Origin: a virus | Taxonomy: Duplodnaviria; Heunggongvirae; Uroviricota; Caudoviricetes | Reading direction: 5' to 3' (one strand) | Length of the DNA: 64,000 nt | Virus record (IMG/VR): IMGVR_UViG_2778261631_000002 | Notes under the pieces: model-generated | Seen by the model: the letters and a program-made list of their open reading frames with translations, nothing else | What the model was told of the DNA's origin: nothing | Database searches by the model: none | Shown here: positions 27,582 to 28,263 of the stretch, one piece after another | How the letters are laid out: each line of letters opens with the position of its first letter | How positions within the stretch are numbered: position 1 is the stretch's first letter | Made by a program: the position numbers and the translations under genes

Positions 27582-28233
27582 ACTTGCCGGGTACGTCTCC
27601 GGCGAGGGCTTCCACCTCCGTATGCTTTTCGGCGCACCGCGCCCTGGCTGCAATTCGGTAACAGGGGATGCACAACCCTGGCTTCCAGCGTGATTAGCGC
27701 CTTCAGCATGACGGGATATACCCGTAAATTCGTGGAACTGTACCCAAAGTGCTGTTAAGCACCGCTGTTACGCTGAAAAGAAAACGCAACAGGAAAGGAC
27801 GCTGACCAACAGATGGCCCCTTCTCGTTCATCTGGTTAATCACACCAGCGCCCTTACCTGTTGTGCCTCCCCGTTCCCTAATACACAGACGGGGACACTC
27901 TGCGGTCGATTTTTTGACGGGGGACGACTCATACCCCGTGGCATCTGGCTTCTTAGGCCGCTACCATCATCAGATCATCGTTTGCATTTACTTTAATGGT
28001 CAGTTTCTAAACCGCCGCAAAGTCGCTAACCATGACGAAAACCCTGAAAAAAACGCCCACCCGAAGATGGGCAAACTGGAAGCTCGTAACGCACTTCGGC
28101 GTTGCCACTTAGGCGCATGGTCAACCTGGCAACTCGGTGGTTTGTCTGGGAGGACTAGGCCCAGCCATGCTTACCGCCGCGCCTGTCGCGGCTAACAGCT
28201 AAATCGCTCTATAAATCACGATTCATTGAGGCG

Positions 28234-28263
28234 ATATTACACTAATAAATTTATTAGAGCAAT
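28234..28263 (-). promoter_or_regulatory. Promoter of the tRNA-tci-ban operon overlapping a perfect C1 operator
   Basis: Minus strand ATTGCTCTAATAAATTT (17/17) with TTGCTC -35 inside the operator, 17-nt spacer, TAATAT -10. Confidence 0.7.

Follow-up and report, generated by a model that had tools for sequence, protein, structure and literature searches.

A tmRNA-like RNA module, without a tRNA-like domain, in the non-coding leader of the phage P1 ban operon

Locus and operon context

Phage P1 is among the best-studied phages, and the leader that precedes two transfer RNA (tRNA) genes of its ban operon has been annotated since 2004 as a 'dicF-like region'. Here we describe this leader in a 64,000-nt stretch of DNA (the window) from a virus of the class Caudoviricetes, IMG/VR record IMGVR_UViG_2778261631_000002, where it occupies positions 27582-28246, and in particular a ~175-nt RNA within it, called module 2, that resembles the coding half of transfer-messenger RNA (tmRNA). 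By BLAST, the leader is 99.7-99.8% identical to that of P1 (NC_005856/AF234173), so that the window is itself phage P1 and a comparison with the P1 leader, recommended in the initial annotation of this DNA, is moot. P7, SJ46 and D6 match 27582-28246 with 92-96% identity, and D6 and SJ46 do so over the whole leader at 92-94%.

On the minus strand, the segment forms the leader of the ban operon, which is under the control of C1 at Op72. An operator palindrome lies at 28234-28265, and the transcript, as read from the annotation and the sequence, starts at about 28227. The first annotated genes of the ban transcript are tRNA-Asn and tRNA-Thr (74.5 and 72.9 bits with the Rfam tRNA model), which are followed by a repeat-rich stretch with the plus-strand annotations plp and upl, and then by tciABC, trnI and ban. 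The distance from promoter to first tRNA is ~645 nt, confirming the untranslated leader of about 650 nt that had been proposed between the operator-controlled promoter and tRNA-Asn. The sole entry of the P1 annotation inside the leader is the 'dicF-like region'. Three stem-loops singled out at the same time were located at 27631-27643, 28176-28192 and 27869-27894, and the copy of the 15-nt repeat CCCTTACCTGTTGTG placed at 27851 is exact, but the description of the leader as GC-rich holds only mildly (0.54-0.55 versus 0.45-0.48 in the flanks).

The thermodynamic stability of the leader is by itself unremarkable: relative to shuffled sequences, the 5'-most 181 nt and the 3'-most 203 nt have folding z-scores of -1.7 and -0.9, respectively, and the full length has one of -2.9. 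The case for structure is made from comparison with relatives and not from folding energy. The leader is a row of several unrelated RNA modules rather than one regulatory leader (Table 1).

Table 1 Features of the ban operon leader and its first tRNA genes, in window coordinates
Feature	Position	Strand	Basis and details
P1ban sigma-70 promoter	28234..28263	minus	NC_005856 annotation mapped to the window; -35 TTGCTC 28262-28257, -10 TAATAT 28239-28234, 17-nt spacer; overlapped by bivalent C1 operator Op72ab
Module 1, 5' RNA of ~180 nt	28046..28227	minus	Conserved scaffold, variable small-RNA-like stretch and terminator
dicF-upstream scaffold	28097..28191	minus	Homologous to ~95 nt immediately upstream of dicF in prophage Qin
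Intrinsic terminator	28047..28073	minus	Terminator scan; 8-bp stem, UUCG loop, seven U
Module 2, tmRNA-like RNA of ~175 nt	28042-27868	minus	Rfam tmRNA matches, covarying helices, tag frame
Pseudoknot PK1	27991..28042	minus	Stem 1 GUUUU 28042-28038/GAAAC 28007-28003; stem 2 CUUUG 28022-28018/UAAAG 27995-27991
mRNA-like domain	27953..27990	minus	UAAAU (U-5, A-4); GCA 27985-27983; tag 27985-27956; stop UAA 27955-27953
Helix-5-like stem	27947..27959	minus	GGC 27959-27957/GCC 27949-27947; stop codon in loop
Pseudoknot PK2, H-type	27905..27938	minus	Stem 1 CGGGG 27938-27934/CCCCG 27922-27918; stem 2 GUCG 27928-27925/CGAC 27908-27905
Pseudoknot PK3, H-type	27868..27904	minus	Stem 1 CGCAGA 27904-27899/UCUGUG 27889-27884; stem 2 UCCCCG 27895-27890/CGGGGA 27873-27868
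Module 3, long hairpin LH1	27785..27865	minus	~20-bp stem, variable tip, carries the CCCTTACCTGTTGTG repeat
Module 4	27582..27784	minus	P1-like phages only; directly upstream of tRNA-Asn
tRNA-Asn	27581-27506	minus	ARAGORN; Rfam tRNA
tRNA-Thr	27503-27428	minus	ARAGORN; Rfam tRNA

A tmRNA-like RNA within the leader

In a permissive scan, the Rfam model tmRNA_permuted matched P1 with 24.1 bits (E=0.007; gathering threshold 47), the alignment running from UAAAU into GCA AAC GAU GAU CUG AUG AUG GUA GCG GCC UAA, which reads ANDDLMMVAA followed by a stop. The models tmRNA_permuted, beta_tmRNA and alpha_tmRNA match the same spot in six unrelated phages. For example, tmRNA model scores reached 33.5 bits in phiEa2809 (E=5e-5), 32.7 in PD205, 29.4 in STGO-35-1 and 20.1 in HK620, while KP6F1 scored 24.9 bits with alpha_tmRNA (E=2e-5). 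By model, the scores stand at 33.5 (best) versus a threshold of 47 for tmRNA_permuted, 24.9 versus 50 for alpha_tmRNA and 14-18 versus 84 for beta_tmRNA.

The structure was evaluated in 245 copies of module 2 (149 distinct), taken from phage records and IMG/VR contigs, in which each helix was tested. The tests were helix-specific and replaced an all-against-all covariation scan, which was swamped by phylogenetic signal; MAFFT had set the P1- and PD205-type stems one to two columns out of register. The two patterns used to find module 2 in viral contigs required AAATGCAAACGA, so that decayed frame starts would be missed, and left codons 5-10 and the stop unconstrained.

The first pseudoknot, PK1, holds between its stems a small UCG/CGA hairpin with a variable loop. 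Stem 1 is invariant apart from GUUUUC/GAAAAC in phiMAM1, and stem 2 shows a compensatory switch between CUUUG/[CU]AAAG (121 sequences, 98-100% paired) and UUAUG/CAUAA (15/15, in the PD205 and phiMAM1 lineages), with a cross-compatibility of 0-1%. As there are only two independent types of stem 2, the support for a pseudoknot upstream of the resume codon is moderate. Stem 2 ends 5-6 nt before this codon, and the five bases ahead of GCA are invariant or at least 90% conserved (53 sequences); they include U-5 and A-4, the positions that set the frame in E. coli tmRNA. Downstream of the template, the helix-5-like stem around the stop codon was read off the alignment in lineage-specific versions of 3-4 bp that differ by compensatory changes (GGC/GCC, AGCC/GGCU, GCU/AGC, UGC/GCA and CGC/GCG).

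The two remaining pseudoknots vary more widely in sequence. The H-type fold of PK2 can be formed in 145 of the 149 distinct sequences versus 34 of 149 shuffled ones, with at least six versions of stem 1 (including CGGGG/CCCCG, CAAGG/CCUUG, UGAGG/CCUCA, GUCAG/CUGAU and CUGGG/CCCAG) and four of stem 2 (GUCG/CGAC, CCGA/UCGG, CCAG/CUGG and CCAA/UUGG). Similarly, PK3 reaches at least 10 bp in 99% of the 149 sequences versus 21% of shuffles. Its stem 1 covaries among versions such as CGCACU/GGUGUG, CAUGGA/UCCGUG and CGGAGU/ACUCUG, its stem 2 among versions such as GCCC/GGGC, GGCGGGAG/CUCCCGCC and AUCC/GGAU, and its conserved loop reads UGUAUUAG in P1 and GAUUAAUAA in other lineages. The CCCCGT...ACGGGG hairpin of the initial annotation is stem 2 of this pseudoknot. 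The resulting order of PK1, template, helix 5, PK2 and PK3 matches that of a tmRNA from which the tRNA-like domain and helix 2 are left out, and the tmRNA-like identity of module 2 is well supported.

A conserved ten-codon tag frame

The tag frame comprises exactly 10 codons before the stop in all 245 copies, and is also intact in each of the seven BLAST-derived loci that were read. It occurs in 39 nucleotide versions encoding 22 peptides, which begin with AN[DE], finish with [AV]A, and range over ANDDLMMVAA, ANDDVVLMAA, ANEEMYLAVA, ANDEQFLAVA and ANDNEFKVAA. In a minimum-spanning network of these versions, changes at codon positions 1, 2 and 3 number 24, 14 and 42, respectively, and 35 of the 80 changes are synonymous in the tag frame versus 10 and 19 in the two alternative frames. 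Three changes affect the stop codon (two to UAG and one to UGA), all of them from stop to stop and none to sense. The fixed length, the third-position and synonymous bias and the stop-to-stop exchanges suggest that the tag frame is probably decoded. Ordinary initiation is an unlikely route, as the length of the overlapping AUG-started frame ranges between 5 and 9 codons and GCA is preceded, at a distance of 8 codons, by an in-frame UAG.

Distribution among phages and bacterial genomes

Module 2 was found by BLAST (E<=1) in 436 phage records, always in gene-less regions and mostly beside tRNA genes or tRNA-like elements, and distant matches in unrelated phages are ~70-74% identical over its ~175 nt. 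Carriers include members of the Ackermannviridae (Erwinia phiEa2809, the Serratia phiMAM1 group, Kuttervirus and Taipeivirus), G7C-like Schitoviridae (PD205, Bp4, ECBP1, KP8 and Pylas), Punavirus, siphoviruses of ~47 kb (STGO-35-1, Sa179lw and Bas81), the P22-like HK620 and Aeromonas pIS4-A. Module 2 is likewise present in 814 of 5426 complete E. coli genomes (15%), where the RefSeq records leave the site almost entirely without annotation; one of the 30 matches listed lies under a 'hypothetical protein'. A bacterial pattern scan also recovered the UAAAUGCAAACGA context in genuine tmRNAs of Oxalobacteraceae, Gallionellaceae (permuted), Thalassospira and Legionella, which ARAGORN calls as tmRNAs with tags such as ANDESYALAA and ANDENFAMAA. 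A full-text literature search returned no description of a tmRNA-like RNA in P1, enterobacterial phages, Ackermannviridae, Schitoviridae or Punavirus, and two RNA-seq studies of P1 cover annotated genes only. As far as can be told, module 2 is an undescribed variant of tmRNA-type RNA.

Several carriers differ in what surrounds the module (coordinates below are those of the fetched loci, whose identifiers stand in brackets). The cleanest natural minimal version is that of Salmonella phage STGO-35-1 (L126, 1154-1795), a compact non-coding unit of ~600 nt lying on the other strand than the flanking tail and capsid genes and consisting, in order, of a promoter (TTGACA and TAGATT, 17 nt apart), module 2, a long hairpin, a tRNA-like element, tRNA-Met(CAU) and an intrinsic terminator. 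Its promoter is near consensus, and the RNA starts 4-5 nt before PK1. In HK620 (L125), module 2 (1195-1345; tag ANEEMYLAVA) is situated between qut (973-1015) and the late terminator tQ (1604-1630), inside the short transcript of the late promoter pR', with long hairpins of the CAGGUAAGAGCA type on both sides. A shortened PK1 region and the tag ANDDYKLAAA were seen in a prophage of Rosenbergiella nectarea (L286, 4160-4040, minus strand), where an unrelated intrinsic terminator ends a few bases before module 2, as in P1.

In the Ackermannviridae, a conserved RNA of ~145 nt follows module 2 (Kuttervirus PM10, L127, ~1393-1535; also L128, L177 and L192). This RNA is tRNA-shaped, with acceptor-like ends (GCCGUUA ... 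AAACGGC-U-CCA), a UUCGACU T-loop and an encoded CCA. It is not called by ARAGORN or the Rfam tRNA model, and its sole Rfam signal is a 13-nt, 10.5-bit tmRNA match on the T-arm.

Comparison with known tmRNAs

The closest counterpart of module 2 is the coding piece of the two-piece, permuted tmRNAs of Alpha- and Betaproteobacteria (RF04321, RF01849 and RF01850). Both have a nearly identical UAAAU, GCA AAC GA... context, a 10-codon AND...AA tag, an upstream pseudoknot, a stop codon in the loop of a short helix and, after the stop, an H-type knot of the form C-GGGG ... CCCC-G with an A-rich loop 3. However, module 2 is without the 5' acceptor strand, the D-loop analogue and helix 2, has no acceptor piece (T-arm, 3' strand and CCA) upstream, carries the additional pseudoknot PK3 and scores below the gathering thresholds. 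Furthermore, it is found in phages whose hosts possess a standard one-piece tmRNA.

Searches for a hidden or permuted tRNA-like domain failed, and module 2 is therefore a template-plus-pseudoknot RNA on its own. Among the candidates considered, a helix 2 (28022-28015/27905-27898) that would close a ring from PK1 to PK2 was rejected, being perfect only in P1, weak elsewhere and in conflict with stem 1 of PK3. The segment GGUUUUCGU was likened to the D-loop analogue GGUUUCGAC of real tmRNAs, but it pairs as stem 1 of PK1, the STGO-35-1 promoter starts the RNA just 4-5 nt upstream and no conserved acceptor strand precedes it. A permuted acceptor piece built from the 3' half of the terminator (GGGCGUU), or from the upstream hairpin plus 'ACCG', gave by reading only 5-6 of 7 pairs and no G3-U70, and GGGCGUU also competes with a very stable terminator hairpin. 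Similarly, the outer stem of the long hairpin (CACAAC/GUUGUG with a bulged A) was considered as an acceptor, with stem 2 of PK3 as the T-arm, but the bulge is absent from the Erwinia and Serratia versions and G7C-like phages have no such hairpin altogether.

Two phages carry aberrant tRNA calls ~100-130 nt upstream of module 2. In PD205 (L003, 1311-1382) this is a 'tRNA-Ala(cgc)', annotated as a pseudo-tRNA, whose best Rfam match is tRNA-Sec (30 bits), and in phiMAM1 (L004, 1280-1371) it is a 'tRNA-Cys(aca)' of 92 nt whose anticodon region contains an insert. These odd tRNAs were dismissed as the missing domain, having no equivalent in phiEa2809, HK620, STGO-35-1 or the Kuttervirus locus. Base-pairing of the phage RNA with E. 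coli ssrA was also discarded, the duplex energy (-152 versus -145 +/- 8 kcal/mol for shuffles) being uninformative.

Phage-borne derivatives of ribosome-rescue RNA are known near tRNA genes in mycobacteriophages (Bxz1, Catera and others) and Bacillus phage G, but those complete tmRNAs carry a tRNA-like domain and are detected by ARAGORN. A 2014 survey of RefSeq viruses (downloaded November 2012) reported ssrA only in mycobacteriophages, additionally naming Bacillus phage G and DS6A, and had no enterobacterial phage among the carriers (PMC4131195). Mycobacteriophage DS6A keeps half of a tmRNA, consisting of the tRNA-like domain only, a type of molecule that inhibits tmRNA (PMC4131195), and module 2 corresponds to the complementary half. 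The 2025 update of the tmRNA database, which requires tRNA-domain positions, holds 79 phage sequences (PMC11915505).

The 5' RNA ahead of module 2

Module 1 is the 'dicF-like region' of the P1 annotation and is already known in outline. Its scaffold (28191-28097) is 77.6% identical to Qin over 98 nt (pairwise BLAST, E=2e-16), the aligned Qin segment stopping ~25 nt before dicF. An alignment of Qin-type prophages with a diverged P1-like plasmid revealed a conserved box (GGCGCGGCGGUAAGYAUGGC) and two hairpins with compensatory stem changes (CUGGG/CCCAG versus CGGGG/CCCCG and GUUGCCA/UGGCAAC versus GUUGUCA/UGACAAC). Homologs of the scaffold occur in 4407 of 5426 complete E. coli genomes, in up to 8 copies each and at 8908 chromosomal places, and no RNA or gene feature is annotated under any match among those listed. 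In E. coli K-12 the scaffold lies at NC_000913.3 1649262-1649358 (L245, 563-659), while in O157 and M1/5 it is found ~250 nt ahead of dicB.

The position occupied by DicF in Qin is taken in P1 by an unrelated stretch of ~50 nt that ends in the terminator at 28073-28047, which is itself at the position equivalent to DicF's own terminator. The DicF covariance model (RF00039) had no match at E<=10 in 27560-28270, and a DicF identity for module 1 was rejected on this ground and because the homology is confined to the dicF flank. The two loci are nevertheless alike in having the same two hairpins followed by a short RNA that ends in an intrinsic terminator, and differ in that P1 continues into the tmRNA-like module and tRNAs whereas Qin continues into dicB. 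Module 1 may therefore be a DicF-type precursor with a different, possibly regulatory, predicted 3' RNA. The 'dicF-like' label of P1 refers to the conserved precursor scaffold and not to a DicF homolog. Module 1 is a separable unit, being absent from D6 and some plasmids, in which the match begins only at 28075 and the upstream sequence is replaced while the terminator hairpin is kept. As this terminator lies ~175 nt past the transcript start, expression of everything downstream depends on read-through.

Hairpins and tRNA-like elements of the operon

Module 3, the long hairpin LH1, is one of five in the operon (the others at 27426-27335, 27211-27139, 27007-26906 and 26728-26645), and its copy of CCCTTACCTGTTGTG is one arm of this repeated hairpin. 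The repeat is exact at 27851-27865, 27197 and 27412, and with up to three mismatches has 6 matches in the window versus 1.1 expected, a number reached in 0 of 100 shuffles. A hairpin of the LH1 type, with a changed stem sequence, also follows PK3 in PD205, HK620, STGO-35-1, phiEa2809 and phiMAM1, while a tRNA-like element takes its place in G7C-like phages. The element 3' of module 2 is thus always a tRNA, a tRNA-like element or a long hairpin, neighbours that would fit release by tRNA-type processing, and LH1 may act as a processing or 3'-end signal.

Module 4 was found by BLAST in only 20 records, all of the Punavirus type. Identity among P1, P7, D6 and SJ46 is 98.6-100% over its 3'-terminal ~145 nt (27725-27582), which would indicate either strong constraint or recent exchange. 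The RNAalifold consensus contains almost no variation for testing pairs.

Further along the operon, repeated minus-strand modules extend over 26640-27430, beneath the plus-strand annotations upl (26692-26883) and plp (~26926-27303). They consist of the arms of the long hairpin (CACAACAGGUAAGRG and CYCUUACCGUUGUG), followed by GUGAUGAAUGCGCAGGCUGAUGCGC, which resembles a tRNA 5' acceptor strand and D-arm, and, past a variable middle, by CCGGAGAUCAGCACCGG-UCAUCACAAC, which resembles a decayed T-arm and 3' acceptor strand. The same module in relatives (L191, L207, L242 and L150) has a canonical D-arm, a canonical T-arm (GGUUCGAUUCC), an ACCC or ACCA end and an insert of ~75 nt, and plp and upl may be artefacts called over tRNA-like RNAs.

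Directly after tRNA-Thr, the stem of the long hairpin at 27426-27335 (minus strand) comprises 16 bp and a single bulged A. The tip of this hairpin combines a D-like hairpin (GCGA-CGUCGGAGA-UCGC) with a perfect T-loop (GGGUUCGAAUCCC), and the 3' arm (UACCCUU-A-CC-G) forms an acceptor-like end minus the final A; neither ARAGORN nor Rfam calls it. Just upstream of tciA, 26534-26653 (minus strand) gives a sub-threshold match to STnc100 (38 versus 47 bits, E=6e-6) and starts with GGUGAAUGCGGCUAAGCGCACGCGG, which is almost identical to the sequence that separates dicF from dicB in Qin. A full STnc100 (49.7 bits) is located ~1 kb downstream of module 2 in Klebsiella phage KP6F1 (L128, 2254-2468).

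Possible roles of the leader RNAs

As P1 leaves lysogeny, a polycistronic non-coding RNA precursor is transcribed from the C1-repressed Pban, and the leader forms its 5' part. When C1 repression is lifted, Pban would make the 5' RNA, and module 2, the tRNAs, tciABC, trnI and ban would be present only in those transcripts that pass the terminator. Excision of module 2 could then follow at the hairpin, tRNA-like or tRNA elements that flank it, through processing of the tRNA type and the RNase E/III type. A comparable release route is that of the species 1 and 2 RNAs of phage T4, stable RNAs other than tRNAs that are co-transcribed with phage tRNAs and freed by tRNA-processing enzymes, and which to our knowledge have no tag frame. 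Once freed, module 2 would be decoded in the course of ribosome rescue as a tag template standing on its own, with the help of host SmpB and of a partner, either a tRNA or tRNA-like, that it lacks itself. During lytic growth the phage would in this way supply the template from which the products of stalled host ribosomes are tagged, and these ribosomes would be freed. This account of expression, processing and tagging is plausible, although we hold it to be slightly less than probable. The same estimate, just short of an even balance, applies to the decoding of module 2 on ribosomes in a rescue context with a partner encoded elsewhere, a step to which the substitution patterns are the one line of evidence that speaks.

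A more specific version of this account would make module 2 a new class of rescue RNA, in which a tag template without a tRNA-like domain enters the empty mRNA channel of stalled ribosomes. The template would be positioned by PK1 and U-5/A-4, perhaps via host SmpB, and GCA would be read by ordinary Ala-tRNA or after the tRNA-like domain of host tmRNA has entered. We regard this version as somewhat unlikely.

Several observations weigh against a role of module 2 in tagging. We know of no mechanism that loads a tag template untethered to a tRNA-like domain, and none of the searches for such a domain recovered one: ARAGORN called no tmRNA either in the window or among 23 loci of relatives, a scan of the 64-kb window for a T-arm plus NCCA returned only the three tRNAs, a T-arm motif is missing between -400 and +500 nt of 70 of 150 distinct copies of module 2, the fetched loci of HK620 and Kuttervirus PM10 contain no tRNA call, and no helix-2-like closing stem survives testing. 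In addition, all Rfam tmRNA scores fall under the gathering thresholds (24-33 versus 47-84), the strong terminator 4 nt upstream of module 2 in P1 makes its expression hinge on read-through, and the loci were partly collected with patterns needing AAATGCAAACGA, by which decayed copies are missed.

The main rival to decoding is that module 2 is an untranslated mimic of tmRNA, a decoy that damps or redirects host trans-translation in lytic growth by engaging the template-positioning surface of SmpB, ribosomal protein S1, RNase R or the empty mRNA channel of stalled ribosomes. Canonical trans-translation is impossible without a tRNA-like domain, and the best-conserved parts of module 2 are RNA features, namely PK1, U-5/A-4 and the PK3 loop (GAUUAAUAA or GUAUUAG). 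There is also an opposite precedent in DS6A, which carries the tRNA-like domain only, a kind of molecule that inhibits tmRNA (PMC4131195). However, a decoy needs no reading frame, yet the frame of module 2 is fixed at 10 codons, shows third-position and synonymous bias and exchanges stops only for stops, and the middle of the tag varies freely in nucleotides while the peptide remains tag-like. A decoy is an unlikely explanation.

Alternatively, module 2 could be the fragment of a captured tmRNA gene of the two-piece type that moves with mobile tRNA islands and is kept only as a structured spacer aiding the folding, processing or stability of tRNA precursors. It always lies in gene-less regions, usually together with tRNA genes or tRNA-like elements, it is accompanied by repeated and shuffled modules (long hairpins, tRNA-like elements and STnc100-like pieces), and it is closest to the permuted tmRNAs of Alpha- and Betaproteobacteria rather than to the ssrA of the enterobacterial host. 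A relic or spacer would not, however, be expected to retain ~70% nucleotide identity over at least four phage families with all helices kept by compensatory change, or an intact frame in 245 of 245 copies, which indicates purifying selection on both structure and frame. In STGO-35-1, moreover, a small separate transcription unit has module 2 as its promoter-proximal product. We consider this origin as an explanation for the present state of module 2 to be distinctly unlikely.

The initial annotation had offered three readings of the leader, namely a processed stable RNA, a structured regulatory leader and degenerate coding sequence. The first comes closest, except that several unrelated RNA modules take the place of one leader. 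The second would have all 650 nt fold as one signal-sensing leader that controls the tRNAs and ban by attenuation, and it is partly true for the strong terminator ~175 nt past the start, which needs read-through; the whole leader also folds somewhat better than shuffles (z = -2.9). Rfam, the check suggested at the time, returned tmRNA models below threshold but no cis-regulatory family at E<=10. The modules differ in their evolutionary distribution, module 1 occurring in E. coli prophages, module 2 in many phage families and module 4 in P1-likes only, which counts against the leader being one unit, D6 exchanges module 1 for other sequence while retaining the rest, and other phages carry module 2 with neither tRNAs nor ban downstream. 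A single cis-regulatory leader is very unlikely.

That the region encodes a protein, through a 110-codon plus-strand frame (27863-28195) or small minus-strand frames, is extremely improbable in spite of the 'hypothetical protein' features under the match in JL22 and SJ46, as the four longest open reading frames have no Pfam match at E<=1, 23 of the 53 distinct P1-type variants keep only 60-89 codons of the 110-codon frame, this frame lies antisense to an RNA whose helices covary, and neither the original P1 annotation nor most RefSeq records call anything at the leader. The earlier view that the leader has no credible open reading frame is upheld by these results, and the suggestion of degenerate coding sequence is wrong for proteins, but a conserved frame, which would have spoken against a non-coding leader, did unexpectedly turn up in the form of the 10-codon tmRNA-type tag.

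Implications for phage biology

Module 2 provides a ready seed for a covariance model, and the 'hypothetical proteins' called across it, and probably also plp and upl nearby in P1, are suggested to be artefacts. If the tmRNA-like assignment is true, a compact family of tmRNA-derived RNAs would exist in P1-type phage-plasmids and in lambdoid and P22-like prophages, as well as in phage groups used for therapy and biocontrol, such as Kuttervirus and other Ackermannviridae and the G7C-like Schitoviridae. Should the somewhat unlikely version with an untethered template in the empty mRNA channel hold, many enterobacterial phages and phage-plasmids, including P1, could take over or supplement the trans-translation of their hosts with an RNA of only ~175 nt. 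The question raised by this family is whether its members are tag templates that work untethered to a tRNA-like domain or viral inhibitors of ribosome rescue, and either would be new for the conflict between phage and host over translation.

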